From: a virus
Length of the DNA stretch: 64,000 nucleotides
IMG/VR virus record: IMGVR_UViG_3300042534_000747
Reading direction: 5' to 3' (one strand)
The translations under genes were made by a program, and so were the position numbers. Each line of letters opens with the position of its first letter. Position 1 is the stretch's first letter. The notes under the pieces are model-generated. The model saw only the letters and a list, made by a program, of their open reading frames with translations, had not been told where the DNA came from and ran no database searches. This document shows, piece by piece, positions 4,895 to 60,257 of the stretch.

Positions 4895-6164
4895 TTACAT
4901 TACTCTTCAAATTTTCTTTTTTTGATTTTTTATTATAATTACTATCCATTGTGACTATTTTTTCATTTTTACTTCTAGTCATCCACCCACTATGATACAT
5001 GGTAAAAAATCCATATATTCTAATGGGAGTCATGATAAATGTCATGAATAGTATATATAAAGGCAAATATTTTATATCTCTTTTATTATATAAAAGATGT
5101 GGATATTGTCTTAAACCTAAACTTATATTCATACCTACTAAACCCATAGGGATACCAATTATCAATGGTATATTGAAGTATGATTGACTAAATATGTAGT
5201 CATATAGTGTATTTAAGATAACAACTGCAAAGAATAATGGTGTTATCATATCAGTTAAGAATACAAACATTGTAAAGGGTCTTTTCCAAATCCAATTCAA
5301 TGATAGTATTGTCTCTCTTTGACTGCTTCTAGCCCATCTTAATTGCTGTTTTATGAATTTATTCCACTTAGAAGGACAATCAGTATAAACAACTGAAGAT
5401 GTTTGTAGTACTGTATCATATCCCATTTTTAAAGCATATGAAGTTAGTACTCTATCATCACCAGATTCACATTTAAACCCTAAGAATGTTTGAGTTAAGA
5501 AATGGTCTGTATTTTTTGTAAATACATCTTTTCTAAATGCAATAGCTCTACCTACTAAACATCCAATAGACCCCCATGCACTTTGTGCAGGCATTGTTAA
5601 TGTAAATCTAACATCTTCCATCCATTGACAGAACTTAGATATTAAATTTCTATCAGGATAGATAATATGCTGACGTGTTAGAACACCACCAACTTTAGAA
5701 TTTTCAAAAGGCATCATCATATTTTTAATTGCATTTTCAGTAAAGATAGTGTCACTATCAACTGAAATTATAACATCACCAATTGATTTTTCAACACCAT
5801 AAATAAGATTACTACGCTTTCCTGCTTTATCACAGTTGTAAACCTTATCAGTGTATTTACTTGCAATATCAAATAAAATATTACCTTCTTGTTTAACATC
5901 TATAACTACAATAATTTCATCTGGATTATTAGATTTAATTGAATTTAACGATTGTTCAAATATATCAATATCTTCATTATAAACAGGTATTATTACACTA
6001 TTTGTAATTTTAAAATTTTCATCTTTCAAAGTATATTGAGTATATTTTTTAGAATAATAGTATTTTATAAAAAATACCATTAAAACATAAATCGAAAAAA
6101 CTTCAAACAGAAAAACATGTCCTGTTTTTAAAGTTTCAATTAATTGTATTATAAAGTATATCAT
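4884..6164 (-). CDS. processive GT2 glycosyltransferase (hyaluronan/chitin synthase-like)
   Basis: IIPVYNE, VDSD, GDDRVLT, QQLRW (QxxRW), C-terminal TM helices. Confidence 0.85.
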   Translation of the reverse strand: MIYFIIQLIETLKTGHVFLFEVFSIYVLMVFFIKYYYSKKYTQYTLKDENFKITNSVIIPVYNEDIDIFEQSLNSIKSNNPDEIIVVIDVKQEGNILFDIASKYTDKVYNCDKAGKRSNLIYGVEKSIGDVIISVDSDTIFTENAIKNMMMPFENSKVGGVLTRQHIIYPDRNLISKFCQWMEDVRFTLTMPAQSAWGSIGCLVGRAIAFRKDVFTKNTDHFLTQTFLGFKCESGDDRVLTSYALKMGYDTVLQTSSVVYTDCPSKWNKFIKQQLRWARSSQRETILSLNWIWKRPFTMFVFLTDMITPLFFAVVILNTLYDYIFSQSYFNIPLIIGIPMGLVGMNISLGLRQYPHLLYNKRDIKYLPLYILFMTFIMTPIRIYGFFTMYHSGWMTRSKNEKIVTMDSNYNKKSKKENLKSNVNEN

Positions 6165-6356
6165 AATTTGTTTCCTTTGTTTCTTTTATTTTTTCACATT
6201 ATCAATAAATATCAATATGTGCAATTTGGCACATGTCACTACATGGCATTCATGGTATATAAATGTATTTGAAAATTTAAAATTATAATGTAGAGATTTG
6301 AGATATCTTTATATAATTGGCAGTTTATAAAATAGGTTAATTGGAATGTGATTTAA

Positions 6357-6665
6357 ATGGAAGAGTTTAAAATTCAAGTTGAGCAGACAATGTTTAAGGG
6401 CAATTGTCCTGAATGTAAGAAAGAAGAAATTGATAAATATCCTTTCAATGTAGATATATTATGCAATGATTGTGCTGTAAAAGATTATGAAAAAAGAAAA
6501 AATAAAGAAAGAATTGAAAATGAAAAATTATCAAAGAATATTTATAATGGAAAAATAACAAATATTAGCTTTGTTGATTCTAAACTTAATGATTTATTTA
6601 TTAAGGGTGAAGATGGCACTTGTTATAAAGTGGATGTTTATAGATTTGGAATTAAAATTATTTAA
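6357..6665 (+). CDS. zinc-ribbon protein
   Basis: CPEC...CNDC. Confidence 0.6.
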   Translation: MEEFKIQVEQTMFKGNCPECKKEEIDKYPFNVDILCNDCAVKDYEKRKNKERIENEKLSKNIYNGKITNISFVDSKLNDLFIKGEDGTCYKVDVYRFGIKII

Positions 6666-7017
6666 ATAATTGGCAATTGCCAGTTATTTTGTCTATCTCT
6701 GCATCAATCATTGGGAAAAAGCCTATTGCAGTGGTTGTATTTGGCTCTAATTCTGTCCTTCCTGCATCTTTTACAATGAAGTAAGGTATTCCTGCATCTA
6801 TAGCTCTTTTTTCCATCTTAGTGATTGTTTTGAGTGTTCCTGAAAGGACTACCTTCTTTTGTTGTAATCCTTCATCAAACCATTTTTCAATTTCTTCTTT
6901 TCTATCAAGATTGTTATAAATCACGCTAAATGATGCATGTGCCACTTGCACGGAAAGTTTAGCAGGTGACATATTTAAATCATTTCTTGCAATTATTACT
7001 TGTTTCATTTCCCACAT
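6658..7017 (-). CDS. pth2: peptidyl-tRNA hydrolase 2
   Basis: KQVIIAR.DL.MS.AKL.VQVAHAS, QKKVVL, DAGRTEL.P...TAIG. Confidence 0.92.
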   Translation of the reverse strand: MWEMKQVIIARNDLNMSPAKLSVQVAHASFSVIYNNLDRKEEIEKWFDEGLQQKKVVLSGTLKTITKMEKRAIDAGIPYFIVKDAGRTELEPNTTTAIGFFPMIDAEIDKITGNCQLFK

Positions 7018-10588: not shown

Positions 10589-10649
10589 TTTTATTCACAA
10601 AAATTAATTAGTTACGGTATATATAAATGTATTTGTAATTAAAAGAATA

Positions 10650-14010: not shown

Positions 14011-14422
14011 TCAACAATTCTGGATTTGCGTGTATGTTGCCTATGATTCTGTAAAATTTAAAATCAAGGTTATGAATAGTATCTATTGAATATCCACCTA
14101 CAAATTTACCATATGGGATGAATATAGCTTTATATCTACCATGTTCAAACATAATTCTGTATCTAATATGGGTTATTGTGTATTCAATTATGAAATCATT
14201 GTAAATTTCATTGTTGTCACAATCATTACATCCAGTGTACTGCATTACTTTTGTATTTGGATTTTCTAAACCTAATTCATCCCAACCTACATAACAACCA
14301 TCTTCAAAATCAAAATCTTCTCTGTCTTGTAAATTCCCAAGAGTAAAAGGCAGTGTTAAACCGCCTGATATTTCATCAAAATTTTTAAATGTTTTATAAG
14401 CTATAAATTTCATATTATCCAT
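13991..14422 (-). CDS. YopX family protein
   Basis: MQYTG..D....EIY and IIGNIHANPELL. Confidence 0.8.
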   Translation of the reverse strand: MDNMKFIAYKTFKNFDEISGGLTLPFTLGNLQDREDFDFEDGCYVGWDELGLENPNTKVMQYTGCNDCDNNEIYNDFIIEYTITHIRYRIMFEHGRYKAIFIPYGKFVGGYSIDTIHNLDFKFYRIIGNIHANPELLSGDTSE

Positions 14423-15744
14423 TATATCACCATATTTGCAAGTATTTTTATTCCTTCTTCTTTTGTTGTAAATATTCTTTCAAGTTGCATTTCAAATAAT
14501 TCATCTTTGATTTTGCCTATTTCTTTACCTTTGAATCCAAATACAAGTATATCATGACCATTTAGCAAAGGTTTTTCTACTTCCATAAGATTTTTGAAAT
14601 CTTGCTTTATCCATTCTATTCTATTAAGGTCAAGTTTTCTCATAGATATATCTGCTATGTGAAGTGCAAATAGACTATTCCAATGCTCATGTTCAAAAAG
14701 TTGCCTTCTTTTTCCAGTACGCATATTTTCAAAATTATGCATCTTCATGTGGTTTTTTATCACGAATTTTGCTTTATTTATTAATTCATTAGATAGTTTG
14801 AAATTTCTAAATATTTTTTCAACTTCTTCAGCACCTATATTATCATGATTGTGAAATGAAGTGCCTACTTGTGTAAATCTTTTACCATCATCATGAAATA
14901 GTGTTATTAGACATAGGTCAAAATCTATTTCTATATCTATAAAATTTTGGATTGATTCAGTTATGAATTTAAGGCAAAGCATATCATGATTAAATAAAGT
15001 TATTTCAGGGTGATGAAGTGGATTCTGTTCAATTGATTTGTGCATTTCTATTTCAGGAAATATTTTAGGAAGTAGATTGAACTCATCAAGTAATTGAACT
15101 GTCCTGAAAGCATTTATACTAAACATTATTTCTAATTCTTTCATGATTCTTTCAATGCTGACTTCAGTGAGGTCTACATGTTTTAATGCTTCTCCTAGAT
15201 TCTCTTCTATAACCATTCCATCTATAAGGGCAAATCTGATAGCTCTCAAAGCTCTCAAAGAGTCCTCTGCTAAACGTTCAACTGGATTGCCTACTGCACG
15301 TATTACACGGTTTTCTATATCTTTTACACCATCAAATAGGTCTATTATTTCACCATCTGCATTCATCAAAATTGTATTTATTGTAAAATCACGTCTACTG
15401 ACATCTTCTTTTATATCAGTTGTAAATTCAACACCTTTAAAATCTTCAATATTGGATTTTTCACCTTTTTTAAGTTTTATTGCGCCACAATGTCTACCTT
15501 TTACAATATCTTTTCTCATTGTGGTTATTTCTACAAAACCTGCATCAGAAGTCTTTATAACAAGTGTACCAAATTTTTCACCAAGATTATGATGGATAGG
15601 CACTAATTTTTTAACTTCAGTTGGTGTAAGTGGAGTTACAACATCCCAATCTTTGATAGGCAAGTTCAGCAATTTATTTCTAATTGCACCACCTACAACA
15701 AAACTATTGGTTTTTTGGAGTAATTCATTAAGAGTTATTGACAT
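14422..15744 (-). CDS. cca: class II CCA-adding tRNA nucleotidyltransferase with HD domain
   Basis: VGGAIR, DWD, RRDFTIN, EDSLR, HD domain (LFHDDGK); ATG 15744 behind SD. Confidence 0.88.
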   Translation of the reverse strand: MSITLNELLQKTNSFVVGGAIRNKLLNLPIKDWDVVTPLTPTEVKKLVPIHHNLGEKFGTLVIKTSDAGFVEITTMRKDIVKGRHCGAIKLKKGEKSNIEDFKGVEFTTDIKEDVSRRDFTINTILMNADGEIIDLFDGVKDIENRVIRAVGNPVERLAEDSLRALRAIRFALIDGMVIEENLGEALKHVDLTEVSIERIMKELEIMFSINAFRTVQLLDEFNLLPKIFPEIEMHKSIEQNPLHHPEITLFNHDMLCLKFITESIQNFIDIEIDFDLCLITLFHDDGKRFTQVGTSFHNHDNIGAEEVEKIFRNFKLSNELINKAKFVIKNHMKMHNFENMRTGKRRQLFEHEHWNSLFALHIADISMRKLDLNRIEWIKQDFKNLMEVEKPLLNGHDILVFGFKGKEIGKIKDELFEMQLERIFTTKEEGIKILANMVI

Positions 15745-15748
15745 TTTT

Positions 15749-15810
15749 AACACCTACAATGATATAATAGGTGTTAATGATATATAAATGTTTGTAAAAA
15801 AAGGAAAAAA
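15749..15810 (-). promoter_or_regulatory. terminator/promoter/palindrome/SD cassette
   Basis: TTCCTTTTTTT-ACAAACATTTATATA-AACACCTA-N11-TAGGTGTT. Confidence 0.8.
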
Positions 15811-24206: not shown

Positions 24207-24483
24207 TTGATTAATTATAAAATTTTTGGTTTCAATTTAAGTAGAGATTATGAAGGAAATTTTTATGGTGATGGAACATATGAAACAAAATATTTAGTGA
24301 TTCTTAGACATGATTCTTCAGATAAAAATATAGTTAAAGCATTAAGGGATATTGGATTTTTTTAGAAAAGGAATACATTCTACTAATTATAAAATAAGCG
24401 GTGATACTGAAAAATCGTTGATAATTAAATCTGCTAAGAGTGGAATGTTTATATGTGAATTAAGAAAAATAAATGATTATTAG
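24207..24483 (+). pseudogene. frameshifted paralog of 32449..32715 (not in ORF track)
   Basis: GGTGA SD, TTG start, GGA TTT TTT TAG at T7 run 24357-24363; +1 frame continues RKGIHS...FICELRKINDY*. Confidence 0.6.
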
Positions 24484-26717
24484 TCATTTATTTCTATACC
24501 TTTTTCTTCAAAGTACATATTTCTTGCATCAATGATGCTTGTTTTTGAAGGCAACTCATTATTTAGCATTTTTTGTCTACACCATCCATAAAAATAATTA
24601 TCGAATGCAGTATATAATTTGCTTTCATGTGGCTTGCCATTCTTCAGTACTATATCGAATGCACCACGAAGGTTTTTCCATGTATTATAGAAATGTCCTT
24701 TTGTTTTGGTCATGAAGCCTGTTGCATCTTCAATCACAAAACCTTCAACATATTCATTATTGTATTTGTAATTTTCAGAATTGACTTCATTATATAGTTC
24801 AAGGAAATCTTCTATATTGTCTACTGTATAGCAAAGTTCCTTTACTTCAATACCTAATTCATTGCCTAATTTTTGAACTTCATCATATGGAAGTTTTTCA
24901 TATTCAAATGTCCTTCTAACTAGGTCAAGTAAGATGATTTTTGGTTTTGAGTATTCAATTATATGAGGGTCTTTTTCAGGATGAATAACTTCAAAAATTG
25001 CACTAGTATTATTTATTTTATTATAATTTTTGAGAAATTCACGCTTTTCTTCTGTAACGGAATCATTGAATATTTCTTCAAATGTAAGTGCATAATTACC
25101 TGCATTATTTGAATATTCTTTTGCATCATATGATTTTGATGAAATGAATAGTTTGTCAAATTCACTGTTGTAACCTATAATTCCTAAAAATCCATTATAT
25201 TTTAGGTAGAATTTTACAGGGAACTGTAGATTCTTAATTAATTGTGAAAGTTGCACTTCAGGTATATTTCTCTGGTCTACATTGAAGAATTTTTCATATG
25301 AACGTGATACTATTTCAAGTGTACTAAGATTTATGAAAAGTCCTCTTGCTTTGATTGTCTGACTATTCCATTTATTGTTTCTAAATACTGAACTGGTAAA
25401 ATTATATGATATAACATTATCAGATAGAGCACGTTTATTAATATTGTTATTTGAATTTAACAAATTAATTATTTCATTATAAGATTTATTTAATGGTAAT
25501 TCAGTTCTTTTTTCATAAACCTTAAATACTGTATTTTTGATTTCAATAGGTGTGAAACCTGTGGAATCTAGTGTAAGGCATCTGAGATTACCACCTGATT
25601 CAATTTCATGGTTCAGATTGAAACATCTGTCATTGATTTGAATAGGGTCAAGTAATTTGTTTCTATGTCCGTGTACCTGATATGTATCATTAGGAGAATG
25701 CTTCATGAAGGCATTATTTACAATATTCATATCATCATACATACCAACTCCACGAATCATCTCATGGCAAGCTATGAAAGCTATGTTTTCAGGCATCTTA
25801 GAGATTCCTGCATGGGTTACAATTACATTTTTGTCATGGAATTTGTAATATAGGCATGGATAGAGCTTGCGATAGAACATTCTTGCATCTTTCTTTGTGA
25901 ATCCTGCATTAACAAGTTGATGAACTGTTTTATGCATAAATTCTTTAGATGCATATCTTGTTTCTGTTTCATTTGAATATCCCCAATTTTTCAAATGAAT
26001 TTCATGATTACCTTCAAGCATAACTACATTAGGCATGTTGATAATGCTTTTTAGGAAATTCATTACTTCACCATTTTCAATACCTCTATCAATATAGTCA
26101 CCTACAAAAATATAAAATTCATTAGGGTCAATTCCATTTTTGAGGTATTCCTGAAGAACTGTATTGCATCCATGAATATCTCCAATGTGATGAATTTTTT
26201 TGTAATTTGAAAGGTCTGTGATTTTGGTTTTAAATGTTTCATTAAAATCTTCAGGTTTAATTACAGTTACAAATGATTGTGGTTCAAGAACTTCAAACCT
26301 TGCATTCATCTTTTCAAGTACATCTTCAGGTACAAATTTATATTCTTCTCTATTTTTGTTTCTACGCTTTACTTCTTCAAGAGGTATGTCTGTAAAATCA
26401 AGTGCATAAACTCTATATTTGTATTTATCAGTGAGATTTTTGTATTTTTTGTAATCTTGGGTTCTGGAATGTGTAGCATCAATAATAATGAATTCTCCAC
26501 GTTCCATACGCTTTTCTACAAGCTCCATTATGAGTTTCCATACATAATTATCATTAAATTGAGAAATTCCATCTGTGCCATCAGGCATCTGTATAGGTGA
26601 CTGAACTAAAAGTCTAATAGAGTCTGCACTAATGGTATATTTTTCAAGATTATTATTTTTTAGGAAAGTGGATTTTCCACATCCTGCTATTCCTCTCATG
26701 AGTACTAAATTTTTCAT
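24480..26717 (-). CDS. trifunctional RNA repair enzyme: polynucleotide kinase + metallophosphoesterase + Rnl1-like RNA ligase
   Basis: P-loop GIAGCGKST, IDAT; GDIHG/GDYIDRG/GNHE; ARGLF...SRSYEKFFN, KYNG, EGFV, KTK; ATG 26717 behind GGTGA. Confidence 0.88.
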   Translation of the reverse strand: MKNLVLMRGIAGCGKSTFLKNNNLEKYTISADSIRLLVQSPIQMPDGTDGISQFNDNYVWKLIMELVEKRMERGEFIIIDATHSRTQDYKKYKNLTDKYKYRVYALDFTDIPLEEVKRRNKNREEYKFVPEDVLEKMNARFEVLEPQSFVTVIKPEDFNETFKTKITDLSNYKKIHHIGDIHGCNTVLQEYLKNGIDPNEFYIFVGDYIDRGIENGEVMNFLKSIINMPNVVMLEGNHEIHLKNWGYSNETETRYASKEFMHKTVHQLVNAGFTKKDARMFYRKLYPCLYYKFHDKNVIVTHAGISKMPENIAFIACHEMIRGVGMYDDMNIVNNAFMKHSPNDTYQVHGHRNKLLDPIQINDRCFNLNHEIESGGNLRCLTLDSTGFTPIEIKNTVFKVYEKRTELPLNKSYNEIINLLNSNNNINKRALSDNVISYNFTSSVFRNNKWNSQTIKARGLFINLSTLEIVSRSYEKFFNVDQRNIPEVQLSQLIKNLQFPVKFYLKYNGFLGIIGYNSEFDKLFISSKSYDAKEYSNNAGNYALTFEEIFNDSVTEEKREFLKNYNKINNTSAIFEVIHPEKDPHIIEYSKPKIILLDLVRRTFEYEKLPYDEVQKLGNELGIEVKELCYTVDNIEDFLELYNEVNSENYKYNNEYVEGFVIEDATGFMTKTKGHFYNTWKNLRGAFDIVLKNGKPHESKLYTAFDNYFYGWCRQKMLNNELPSKTSIIDARNMYFEEKGIEIND

Positions 26718-26764
26718 TTTTTCACCATTGATTAAACAATGGTTGTAATGATATTTAAAAGTAT

Positions 26765-26801
26765 GCAAAAAAAAGAAATTAATGAAGCCATTTTGCTTCA
26801 A
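26765..26801 (-). terminator. hairpin plus oligo-T terminator closing the array transcript
   Basis: TGAAGC/GCTTCA stem (26783-26800) then TTTCTTTTTTTT on minus strand. Confidence 0.6.
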
Positions 26802-26809
26802 TGTAGCCA

Positions 26810-27126
26810 GTCACAATTCAACATTGTTGGAATAATGTATTGTAACACCAGACAACAAAATAAGAAATATCAAAAGAAGCATAAGTCACAATTCAACATA
26901 TTTGAAATGTTGTATGACAACTAATCCATTCAAAAGAAGAAGAAGTTATATGTTAACATCACAATTCAACATTGTTGGAATGTTGTATTGTAACATTTAG
27001 TATGAGTCCTGATTGTCACAATTCAACATTGTTGGAGTGTTGTATGACAACTCTATTCTTGGTAATGTTGCATGAGCAGTATTATGTGTGTCACAATTCA
27101 ACATTGTTGGAGTGTTGTATGGCAAC
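26810..27126 (-). CRISPR. mini CRISPR array, 5 x 37-nt repeats, 4 spacers (38, 36, 20, 38 nt)
   Basis: repeats at 26810, 26885, 26958, 27015, 27090; plus-strand consensus GTCACAATTCAACATTGTTGGAGTGTTGTATGACAAC with CAACAT/RTGTTG stem; orientation inferred from flanking promoter and terminator. Confidence 0.92.
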
Positions 27127-27285
27127 ACTGTAATGTATATTGTTTTTATTTATACAACATTTAGTTGATGTTGATTCTTGAATCATTGATTTCCTAATGG
27201 AACATCTCAAACAAGCTCACCCCATATGTGCTACGGTGTATATGATTATTAATTATTTGAATTGTACTTGGTTATCGTACAAGTC
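27127..27285 (-). ncRNA. putative structured leader / tracr-like scaffold
   Basis: anti-repeat-like ATACAACAT-N7-ATGTTGATT (27152-27176); hairpins TGATTC/GAATCA and TTGTAC/GTACAA. Confidence 0.45.
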
Positions 27286-27303
27286 ATATAATGTACGTTA
27301 TCA

Positions 27304-27316
27304 TATATAAATGTTC
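27304..27316 (-). promoter_or_regulatory. BRE/TATA promoter of the leader-array transcript
   Basis: GAACATTTATATA, matching the element's promoter consensus. Confidence 0.7.
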
Positions 27317-27342
27317 TGTAAGAAAAGAAATCTTGTATTTAT

Positions 27343-27360
27343 AAAGAAAAAAATAAAAAT
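27343..27360 (-). terminator. oligo-T terminator directly after tnpB
   Basis: ATTTTTATTTTTTTCTTT on minus strand. Confidence 0.6.
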
Positions 27361-28566
27361 TCAACAAGAAATAGGTGCTGAATTTTTGATATTGATTGCT
27401 GCATTAATATCTCTATCATGAGTTGTATTACATGATGTGCATGTCCATTCTCTGATATTTAATCCCATTTTAGCAGTTTTTGTCCCACATACATTACAGA
27501 TGTGAGATGTTGCTTTCCATTGGTCTACTTCAATGACTGTTTTGCCTTCATATTCTGCTTTATATCGGAGTTGTCTGAAAAATTCACTCCATGATACATC
27601 TGCAATTGCTTTTGAAAGTTTTGGATTTTGCATCATTCCTTTTATGTTGAGGGTTTCAATTGCAATACAGTCATAGTTAGTTACTAATTCTTTTGAAATG
27701 TTGTGTTGGAAATCAGAACGTTGATTTGCAATTTTCTCATGGCAAGATGCAATAATTTTATTTTGTTTATGCCAATTATTTGAAAATTTTTGTTTTCTTG
27801 ATGCTCTACGTTGTAGTTTTGCAAGTTTCTTTTGTGAGGAAACAAAATATCTATTATTATCTATTTTTTTGCCATCTGAAAGAATTGCAAAATGAGTTAA
27901 TCCCATATCAATACCTATTGTGGTAGAATCGTTGTAGGGTATTTTTGGCATTTCAGGTAATCCATCTTCTACAAGAATTGAAATATAATATTTTCCTGAA
28001 GATGTTTTTGAAATTGTAGATGTTTTAATTAAATATTGGTCTGAAATTTTGAAGGTTTCACCATTATCATATGAAATCCAACATTTATTTTTAGATTGTT
28101 TAATTACATCAAAATTAGAATTTTCAAATTTTCTATGTAATCTACATTCAATTAGAGTTTTTAATTTTGGAATATTTATATATCCAGTTTTGAAGTTAAT
28201 TGAATAATTTTGATAAAATTGAAATGAATTACCTGATTTTTTATTTTTAAATTGAGGATATCCTACATCTATACCCTTTTTTTGCCCTCTAAAGAAATTT
28301 TTATATGCTGTATCAAGGTTACGCAATGTATATATTAAGCTTCCTGAACTAGCTTCTGAAATAAAAGGGTATTGTTCTTTCCATACACTGCTAATTAAAT
28401 CTTGACAATCTGATGGAAACATTGATTGATGTGCATTTTGATACATGAATGAACATGTATGCAATGATTTATTCCAAATGAATCTACAACAATCAAAATT
28501 TATTTTGAAAAATTCCTTCTGTTCTTCAGTTGGATAAATTCTATATTTATATGCTTTTAGTACCAT
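27361..28566 (-). CDS. tnpB: IS200/IS605-family TnpB RNA-guided nuclease (CRISPR-adjacent, Cas12f-like size)
   Basis: KAYKYRIYP HTH; RuvC GIDMG / IAIETL / DRDINAAINI intact; Zn finger CNVC...CTSC; 401 aa. Confidence 0.92.
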   Translation of the reverse strand: MVLKAYKYRIYPTEEQKEFFKINFDCCRFIWNKSLHTCSFMYQNAHQSMFPSDCQDLISSVWKEQYPFISEASSGSLIYTLRNLDTAYKNFFRGQKKGIDVGYPQFKNKKSGNSFQFYQNYSINFKTGYINIPKLKTLIECRLHRKFENSNFDVIKQSKNKCWISYDNGETFKISDQYLIKTSTISKTSSGKYYISILVEDGLPEMPKIPYNDSTTIGIDMGLTHFAILSDGKKIDNNRYFVSSQKKLAKLQRRASRKQKFSNNWHKQNKIIASCHEKIANQRSDFQHNISKELVTNYDCIAIETLNIKGMMQNPKLSKAIADVSWSEFFRQLRYKAEYEGKTVIEVDQWKATSHICNVCGTKTAKMGLNIREWTCTSCNTTHDRDINAAINIKNSAPISC

Positions 28567-28597
28567 ATTTTAACCTGTGAATGTTATAGGTCAATTA

Positions 28598-28639
28598 ATG
28601 GTTGTTCTAATATTTAAATGTTTGTTAAAAAAGAAAAAA
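28598..28639 (-). promoter_or_regulatory. native promoter of tnpB
   Basis: 41 of 42 nt identical to 53093-53134. Confidence 0.8.
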
Positions 28640-28686
28640 AGAAAATTGAGTAACAAATGGATTATTATGGTATTGCAACCAATAAC

Positions 28687-53062: not shown

Positions 53063-53134
53063 TTTTTACCTCATGTGTGAGTAATACAATATATGGTTAT
53101 TCTAATATTTAAATGTTTGTTAAAAAAGAAAAAA

Positions 53135-59765: not shown

Positions 59766-59869
59766 TAATTTATACCTACATTACAGTAATTAGTTGTTAT
59801 TATATTTAAATGTTTGCTAAAATTGGCATTATGACTTATAAAATAAAAATATAAGTAAAAAAGATAATA

Positions 59870-59942
59870 CGCCTACAACAGGGCTTGAACCTGTGACATC
59901 CTGATTAACAGTCAGGCACTCTACCAACTGAGTTATGTAAGC
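59870..59942 (-). tRNA. tRNA-Asn(GTT), no encoded CCA
   Basis: full cloverleaf; anticodon arm CCTGA-CTGTTAA-TCAGG; GGTTCAA. Confidence 0.95.
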
Positions 59943-59950
59943 ATCTTGAA

Positions 59951-60023
59951 AGCTCTTGAAGGGATTTGAACCCTCGATTTGTGGTTTACAAAACCACCGC
60001 TATAGCCACTAAGCTACAAGAGC
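59951..60023 (-). tRNA. tRNA-Thr(TGT), no encoded CCA
   Basis: GTGGT-TTTGTAA-ACCAC; GGTTCAAATCC. Confidence 0.93.
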
Positions 60024-60033
60024 ATATTTGAAA

Positions 60034-60105
60034 TTCCCTTCATACTTGCAAATTCAATATTGGGAGATTGGATAATATACATACGATACTGCAAATATGA
60101 AGGAA
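60034..60105 (-). ncRNA. 72-nt long-stem element inside tRNA operon
   Basis: 16-bp stem (2 G-U on minus strand) enclosing 39 nt. Confidence 0.45.
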
Positions 60106-60176
60106 TGCATAATAAGGGATTTGAACCCCTGCTAAATGGTTGGAAACCACTTATGCTACCATTACATCAATTATGC
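60106..60176 (-). tRNA. tRNA-Gly(TCC), A73 discriminator, no encoded CCA
   Basis: AGTGG-TTTCCAA-CCATT; GGTTCAAATCC. Confidence 0.92.
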
Positions 60177-60183
60177 AAATTTA

Positions 60184-60257
60184 CGCACCTGAAGGGATTT
60201 GAACCCCTGACCACTGGATTAAAAGTCCAACGCTCTGCCTGACTGAGCCACAGGTGC
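60184..60257 (-). tRNA. tRNA-Lys(TTT), no encoded CCA
   Basis: TTGGA-CTTTTAA-TCCAG; GGTTCAAATCC. Confidence 0.95.

Follow-up and report, generated by a model that had tools for sequence, protein, structure and literature searches.

Results

A tnpB gene and a co-oriented repeat array on a virus-like contig

The locus described here lies in IMG/VR virus record IMGVR_UViG_3300042534_000747, within a stretch of 64,000 nucleotides (hereafter the window) that is part of a 202.5-kb, virus-like contig composed mostly of ORFan genes. On the minus strand of the window, the gene for a TnpB protein of 401 amino acids (aa), P0001, is followed by a T-rich run, a second promoter motif, a structured leader, five 37-nt repeats separated by spacers, and a hairpin with an oligo-T tract (Table 1). 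A first-pass annotation of this DNA had listed each of these features, together with the RuvC acidic residues and zinc finger of the protein, and all were found to be present, with a 1-nt correction to the repeat coordinates. That annotation had also proposed that the TnpB exchanged its omegaRNA for guides from a captured CRISPR array, and that the locus represents a transition from TnpB to Cas12. The results presented here support a physical and evolutionary link between the TnpB and its own co-oriented mini-array, which lacks an adaptation module, and indicate that the array was derived from the omegaRNA itself.

Sequence and structural comparisons indicate that P0001 is an intact RNA-guided nuclease and a typical IS605-type TnpB. 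The protein contains the Pfam domains HTH_OrfB_IS605, OrfB_IS605, and Cas12f1-like_TNB, and scored 318 bits against the NCBIfam model guided_TnpB (cut-off 100) and 361 bits against IS200_TnpB. Its best natural match in the PDB was ISDra2 TnpB, with D220, E304, and D386 aligning to D191, E278, and D361 of that protein (PDB 8bf8/8h1j, E 2.6e-61), and the zinc-finger cysteines C357, C360, C376, and C379 are kept across the aligned relatives. The AlphaFold model, with a predicted local distance difference test score (pLDDT) of 88, most closely resembled the folds of ISFba1 and ISDra2 TnpB (template modeling [TM] scores of 0.72-0.80), and the LaTranC and Cas12f folds matched it less well (about 0.6-0.7). 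The alignment also revealed a private 29-aa insertion at about residues 150-179, which is found in none of the relatives and was modeled as three short beta-strands (pLDDT 65-78), and a shortened C-terminus with an early end, ..NIKNSAPISC. Private insertions in the N-terminal lobe are carried by array-bearing clades of relatives, that of the clade of L054, a Methanothrix metagenome-assembled genome, being a different one of 19-35 aa near residue 48.

The nearest TnpBs among 5.8 billion proteins searched are about 46-50% identical to P0001 and belong to Methanococcoides, Methanosarcina, Methanothrix, and metagenome contigs. In cultured phages, no relative above 42% identity was found.

The leader is an omegaRNA scaffold set apart from tnpB

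Alignment of the 3' flanks of the nearest TnpB relatives revealed a shared block, ACACCGTAG...GGTGAGCYTGT...ATGAARCARGAA. A covariance model (model R1, not to be confused with the repeat of that name) was built from the sequences of 12 relatives, with the window excluded. The consensus fold of these relatives consists of two hairpins enclosed by a long-range helix, and 14 of the 18 model pairs display compensatory changes among them. When the window was searched with this model, positions 27239-27173 matched with 44 bits (E 1.3e-10), the sole significant match in the 64 kb (next best, E 0.7). The leader is a genuine omegaRNA scaffold, and rather than having been swapped for array-derived guides, as the first-pass annotation had it, the omegaRNA core is kept between the promoter motif and the array. 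No known RNA family was recognized by an Rfam scan of 24-31 kb. By eye, the tail could form a pseudoknot with the segment that follows GAGCYTGT in the canonical relatives, but not in the window.

The position of the scaffold relative to tnpB differs from that in the relatives. There, the block begins within the last tnpB codons or, in L054, a few dozen bases past the stop, with the TGA of GGTGAGC serving as the stop codon in P0003, P0004, and P0005; in the window, it is found about 125 nt past the tnpB stop. Within the scaffold of the window, an ancestral TnpB C-terminus with its stop codon is nevertheless still legible as a fossil, implying that the guide-RNA gene and tnpB were separated by about 125 nt containing a terminator and a promoter. 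The simplest reading of the sequence would be that this segment was inserted between tnpB and its omegaRNA.

Both genes appear to use the expression signals of the surrounding element. The 12-mer ACATTTAWATAT, with at most one mismatch, occurs 43 times in the window compared to 14 +/- 4 times in shuffled sequence, a three-fold enrichment, and most of the copies lie ahead of genes on the minus strand, the gene-rich one (e.g., 783-794, 10619-10630, 15780-15791, and 53105-53116). Based on this enrichment and position, the motif is probably the standard promoter of the element. Since copies precede both tnpB and the leader, tnpB and the RNA gene each sit behind an apparent standard promoter, and a further copy with one mismatch is present at 26751-26762, ahead of the next gene. 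The spacing to the promoter motif would place the transcription start of the guide-RNA gene near 27282.

The repeats are related to the terminal module of the omegaRNA

The 19-nt core of the repeat occurs 5 times, against 0.16 expected by chance, and the 14 nt that adjoin every spacer, ATGTTGAATTGTGA, are invariant in 5/5 repeats. The repeat comprises a hairpin and an 8-nt tail, ATTGTGAC, and folding indicated that the changes at repeat positions 4-6 preserve pairing with this invariant tail.

A module of the same kind terminates the omegaRNA in relatives. In the canonical copies (L060, L062, L066, L051, and L078), the core leads into a single terminal hairpin and then an 8-nt tail, T[A/G]GTTCA[A/C]. 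Identical insertion sequence (IS) copies L060, L062, and L066 diverge exactly past this tail, which therefore marks the boundary between scaffold and guide, and the 3' ends of the window repeats (..GTGAC) resemble this boundary (..GTTCAA/C). At the site of the terminal hairpin, the window has R0, a degenerate hairpin whose local alignment to the repeat scored 20, compared to 13.5 +/- 2.7 in shuffles (p = 0.04). A 15-nt stretch (27141-27127) separates R0 from R1, and the layout in L052 is alike (module, 15 nt, module). Moreover, L052, the locus of P0005, has two copies of a 37-nt terminal module, and the window repeat matches the second one at 24/37 positions without gaps. Global scores against the two L052 copies were 39 and 35, compared to 8.9 +/- 5.1 in shuffles (reached by 0/2000), and a weaker alignment was obtained with repeats of the L054/P0010 clade (p about 0.01).

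Searches for the repeat in CRISPR arrays of potential hosts were negative. The exact 19-mer was found in no array in IMG/VR and the GTDB genomes (596 Gb), and paired 12-mers in JGI metagenomes and IMG/VR returned only chance matches or unrelated tandem or coding repeats. Given the homology of the repeat to the omegaRNA terminal module, and the absence of its core from every array searched, the sequence indicates that the array is built from the omegaRNA's own 3' end, as copies of its terminal hairpin and tail, and was not captured from a CRISPR-Cas locus as the first-pass annotation had assumed. Serial duplication of omegaRNA segments has previously been named as a route by which arrays originate (PMC10691335). 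A k-mer screen also returned a candidate second array at 2298-2467 of the window (80-nt direct repeat, 90-nt spacing), which is actually a coding repeat inside a 217-aa open reading frame (ORF).

Table 1. Coordinates of the features of the tnpB-array locus in the window, listed in the direction of transcription
Feature	Position	Strand	Basis and remarks
Promoter motif ACATTTAAATAT before tnpB	28610-28621	-	Exact copy of the enriched motif, 43 nt upstream of the ATG; putative promoter
tnpB (P0001), 401 aa	27361-28566	-	Intact ORF; Pfam, NCBIfam, alignment, AlphaFold
T-rich run T5-A-T7-C-T3 directly 3' of the tnpB stop	27343-27359	-	Sequence reading; probable terminator
Promoter motif ACATTTATATAT of the guide-RNA gene	27303-27314	-	Exact copy of the enriched motif; within the ~125-nt segment absent from relatives
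5' leader with hairpin TTGTAC-N9-GTACAA	27240-27285	-	Locus-specific, absent from relatives; hairpin in the minimum-free-energy fold
Fossil of ancestral TnpB C-terminus and stop, IYTVAHMG-stop	27217-27243	-	In-frame translation; matches ...GYTVAHTG-stop of P0005 and P0003
omegaRNA scaffold core: hairpin 1, GGUGAGCUUGU, hairpin 2, AUGAUUCAAGAA	27173-27239	-	Covariance model R1
R0, degenerate terminal hairpin CAACAT-CAACTAA-ATGTTG	27142-27172	-	Same place as the native omegaRNA terminal module
Five-repeat array (R1-R5), consensus GTTGTCATACAACACTCCAACAATGTTGAATTGTGAC	26810-27126	-	Repeat analysis, folds, alignments
R1	27126-27090	-	37-nt repeat
Spacer S1	27089-27052	-	38 nt
R2	27051-27015	-	37-nt repeat
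Spacer S2	27014-26995	-	20 nt
R3	26994-26958	-	37-nt repeat
Spacer S3	26957-26922	-	36 nt
R4	26921-26885	-	37-nt repeat
Spacer S4	26884-26847	-	38 nt
R5	26846-26810	-	37-nt repeat
Hairpin TGAAGC-AAAATG-GCTTCA, then T8	26767-26800	-	Sequence reading; probable guide-RNA terminator

Arrays recur among relatives with the same omegaRNA family

Within the same omegaRNA family, arrays are also present in three other well-supported clades, as defined from a quick tree. The L052/L053 clade has two modules, and L054 has four identical 37-nt repeats plus a degenerate fifth, with spacers of 36-40 nt. The letter-identical protein P0013 (L083-L088) was found with 1, 1, 3, 4, 4, and 5 repeats, and the letter-identical protein P0010 (L089-L096) with 1, 2, and at least 6. 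These P0013 and P0010 loci, in Methanothrix-type mobile elements, have the same flanks, a 37-nt repeat (CTTGCAATTG[A/G]CAA...ATGCGTTGCCAC), and different sets of 35-38-nt spacers, and no cas gene was called within their 2.5-kb flanks. The association of identical proteins with varying arrays implies that units are gained and lost on a short time scale in that clade. Thus, the synteny of tnpB and array with different spacers, which the first-pass annotation had recommended looking for in related contigs, recurs in the same kind (L054, L052, L070/L073/L060, P0013, and P0010).

Several other arrangements were observed among the relatives. In the third clade, that of the IMG/VR contigs L070 (minus orientation, 5200-6816), L073, L060, and L075, a free-standing promoter, an omegaRNA-like scaffold, and an array of 38-nt repeats lie upstream of a 372-aa tnpB. 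Spacers differ among these contigs, and in L060 the array-adjacent tnpB demonstrably also retains a canonical omegaRNA downstream. In the clade of P0005 and P0003, a conserved small ORF of about 40-44 aa is found directly upstream of tnpB (L052, 2340-2500; L097, 95-215), and is not present in the window. The contig of P0003 stops at the repeat start.

RNA contigs matching the locus

Matches to the locus were found in contigs from two metatranscriptome runs of other studies, X2 and X3, which provide no strand, ends, or levels. In X3, a 156-nt contig with a depth of 11.4 matched 27230-27076 exactly, extending in one piece from within scaffold hairpin 1 across R0 and R1 and over the first 14 nt of S1, a hint that the scaffold, R1, and the start of S1 reside on one abundant RNA. 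None of tnpB was represented among the contigs of this run, and X2 contained low-depth contig pieces on tnpB and the R4-R5 region; missing cover in either run is not evidence of silence. A 230-nt contig from X3 also matched the S4/R5 junction (26831-26882) in two pieces, one with 4 differences, with about 105 extra letters between the pieces and a loose end unlike the window. Possibly, this contig stems from a variant strain whose array has another unit.

Accessory genes and genomic surroundings

Among the 78 window ORFs of at least 100 aa, there was no tnpA and no Y1 or serine transposase, consistent with the description of this TnpB in the first-pass annotation as lacking a recognizable tnpA, and Pfam searches of the same ORFs found no member of the cas1, cas2, cas4, or cas6 families. 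The G+C content around the locus is about 19-33%, and that of the locus itself (0.25-0.31) is the same as its surroundings.

Directly downstream of the array, at 24480-26714 on the minus strand, a gene encodes a 744-aa protein in which polynucleotide kinase (AAA_33), metallophosphatase, and T4-type RNA ligase 1 (Rnl1) are fused. This RNA-repair architecture is common in tailed viruses, and this particular gene was without a relative in IMG/VR. The other recognizable genes of the window encode a class II CCA-adding enzyme (14422-15753), a PTH2 peptidyl-tRNA hydrolase, a dCMP deaminase, YopX, two SprT-like proteins, and a BsaWI-like endonuclease, and a cluster of four tRNAs (Asn-GTT, Thr-TGT, Gly-TCC, and Lys-TTT) is located at 59869-60257 on the minus strand. 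Because the TnpB and omegaRNA have relatives in methanogens and the element encodes PTH2, an archaeal host is plausible on the basis of sequence.

Discussion

Based on the data presented above, we estimate a probability of roughly 0.7 that the locus encodes a resident, non-transposing TnpB nuclease equipped with a multi-guide RNA gene that arose from its own omegaRNA. The anatomy of the locus, the homology of scaffold and repeats, and the repeated occurrence and turnover of arrays among the relatives are shown by the sequences, and from these we infer the transcription limits, processing, cleavage, and targeting in the model that follows. A segment of about 125 nt, with a terminator and the standard promoter of the element, would have parted the omegaRNA from the end of tnpB, after which the last module of the omegaRNA, the hairpin and 8-nt tail that abut the guide, would have multiplied to five 37-nt repeats with guide-length inserts. 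A single transcript would run from about 27282 to the T8 at 26767. TnpB is predicted to bind both a repeat module and the conserved core of the scaffold, to use about 16-20 nt directly 3' of the tail ATTGTGAC as the guide, and to cut matching DNA beside a target-adjacent motif (TAM). The first unit (core-R0-R1-S1) could act in cis as one long guide RNA, and later units would need processing, anti-repeat pairing by R0, or alternative folding. The likely role of such a system would be attack on competing mobile elements or host loci; as no targets were found, this "weapon" role, which the first-pass annotation also advanced, is one that we infer.

Several observations weigh against this interpretation. 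The repeats are non-identical, with up to 6 changes, and the spacers are irregular in length (38, 20, 36, and 38 nt), unlike the clean arrays of the L054 clade, and the 5' half of the repeat has no significant excess of variable columns (8/21 vs 2/16, p = 0.14). No protospacer was found in the window (best matches, 2-4 mismatches in 16 nt), in INPHARED phages (E >= 0.3), or among the loci retrieved for comparison. The duplex between the post-core segment (R0) and the repeat, of 10+7 bp, is no better than in shuffles (p about 0.2), and a split into tracrRNA and crRNA is therefore not supported. The RNA contigs are without strand or ends and could reflect carry-over of DNA. Finally, the synteny comparison covers relatives no closer than about 50% identity.

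Comparable tests were also applied to the relatives. The post-core:repeat duplex of L054 was not significant (p about 0.6), and pairing between the scaffold 3' end and the repeat was significant in the L070 lineage only (p 0.004-0.013). An L054 spacer has 17 nt in common with L083, in the guide-distal half and with 22/37 positions identical overall, and this match was attributed to chance.

The most credible of the other explanations, although one we regard as unlikely, is that the locus is a decaying relic, in which neutral tandem duplication of the omegaRNA 3' end gave rise to the repeats and TnpB is guided by the first unit at most, the others being functionless debris. The divergence of the repeats, the 20-nt spacer, the degenerate state of R0, the lack of a significant anti-repeat, the failure to find targets or, among the 78 ORFs, adaptation genes, and the restriction of the X3 RNA contig to the first unit would all fit with decay. 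However, a consensus promoter and a hairpin/T8 terminator bracket the whole array, the 14 nt adjoining every spacer have remained invariant, the changes at positions 4-6 keep their pairing with the invariant tail, and the nuclease is intact. Living arrays of like design in relatives likewise argue against a relic.

It is also conceivable, if rather doubtful, that the locus and relatives including the methanogen-associated ones represent a stage earlier than that of the TranC systems discussed below, operating with one long cis guide RNA (core-R0-R1-guide) and no tracrRNA:crRNA split, and with repeat-guide units that come and go independently of Cas1-Cas2, through recombination or some TnpB-linked route, for example. 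If true, this would explain why identical TnpBs (P0013 and P0010) are found with 1 to at least 6 units and spacers of 35-38 nt.

An ordinary, active IS200/IS605 element, whose TnpB and omegaRNA would function in transposon homing and whose right end would have been duplicated to give the repeats, would be in keeping with the typical IS605-type protein (361 bits to IS200_TnpB, with ISDra2 TnpB as the best natural PDB match). We consider this very improbable: the 64-kb window contains no Y1 or serine transposase, tnpA included, among the 78 ORFs and only a single copy of the omegaRNA scaffold, the terminator and promoter uncouple the omegaRNA from the ORF, and the gene has the promoter motif and G+C content of the element. 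Least probable of all is a virus-borne mini-CRISPR array that stands beside TnpB by chance and depends on a host type I/III system (Cas6 and a host effector), like those on Sulfolobales viruses (PMC6858448), for while 37-nt repeats with 36-38-nt spacers are an ordinary CRISPR format and no cas genes were found on the 64-kb window, the array runs on directly from the TnpB omegaRNA scaffold, the repeat is homologous to the terminal module of a TnpB omegaRNA, and a matching host type I/III repeat, which the first-pass annotation had named as grounds for rejection, was found neither in the GTDB genomes nor in JGI metagenomes or IMG/VR.

Returning to a resident TnpB with a multi-guide RNA gene, the locus exemplifies a known transition, that of a transposon guide RNA into CRISPR, and is of the TranC or type V-U kind, in that a TnpB-like effector is adjacent to and co-oriented with a repeat-spacer array whose repeats are derived from omegaRNA. 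Thus, the transitional TnpB-to-Cas12 system proposed by the first-pass annotation holds as a real example of the omegaRNA-to-CRISPR step, but the concept itself has been published. TranC are transposon-CRISPR intermediates (Jin et al., Cell 2025, doi 10.1016/j.cell.2025.09.004; also treated in bioRxiv 10.64898/2026.03.27.714800 and PMC13565253). They share with the locus a TnpB-derived, TnpB-sized nuclease by a short array, no cas1/2, an omegaRNA-derived guide, and in some members carriage by phages, as for the phage-borne, TnpB-sized CauTranC9 with its 38-nt repeat and 5 repeats. The window differs in that its scaffold has its own promoter and a split with an anti-repeat tracrRNA and a crRNA is unsupported. 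Nor does P0001 belong to the LaTranC lineage, which it matches in sequence only over the C-terminal third (E 5e-30) and in fold with TM scores of 0.69/0.59, compared to 0.77/0.80 for TnpB. Types V-U6 to V-U45, or "omegaRNA arrays" (Altae-Tran et al., PNAS 2023, PMC10691335), likewise pair the nuclease gene with a short downstream array, lack other cas genes, and originated by serial omegaRNA duplication; in contrast with these, P0001 falls among typical IS605-type TnpBs.

Other known systems are similar in part. The ISDra2 and ISFba1 TnpBs (PDB 8h1j, 8exa, and 8iaz) have the same domains, catalytic triad, fold, and scaffold 5' of the guide, but the window has no tnpA, an omegaRNA off the ORF, five guide positions rather than one, and the private 29-aa insertion. 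Cas12r-CRISPR of Thermus Lalka phages (bioRxiv 10.64898/2026.04.20.719267) likewise couples a compact type V nuclease on a virus to an array of its own and is proposed to take part in conflicts between mobile elements. Cas12r has been demonstrated experimentally and its spacer targets are known, whereas the system in the window is known from sequence and its targets were not found. Cas12f (type V-F) shares a miniature RuvC nuclease and a tracrRNA-like scaffold between gene and array; however, its similarity to P0001 is distant (E about 1e-6; TM about 0.6), and it has enlarged REC/WED domains and a clear repeat:anti-repeat duplex.

The locus offers a natural snapshot of a transposon guide RNA becoming a CRISPR-like array, with a fossil stop codon inside the scaffold and repeats that can be traced to the last hairpin of the omegaRNA. 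The lineage is distant from characterized TranC and Cas12 proteins, its identity to known proteins reaching about 50% at most, and its omegaRNA family is centered on methanogen mobile elements, so it could contribute a compact nuclease that comes with a defined multi-guide RNA of natural origin. The locus could also help to explain how arrays without cas genes acquire spacers.

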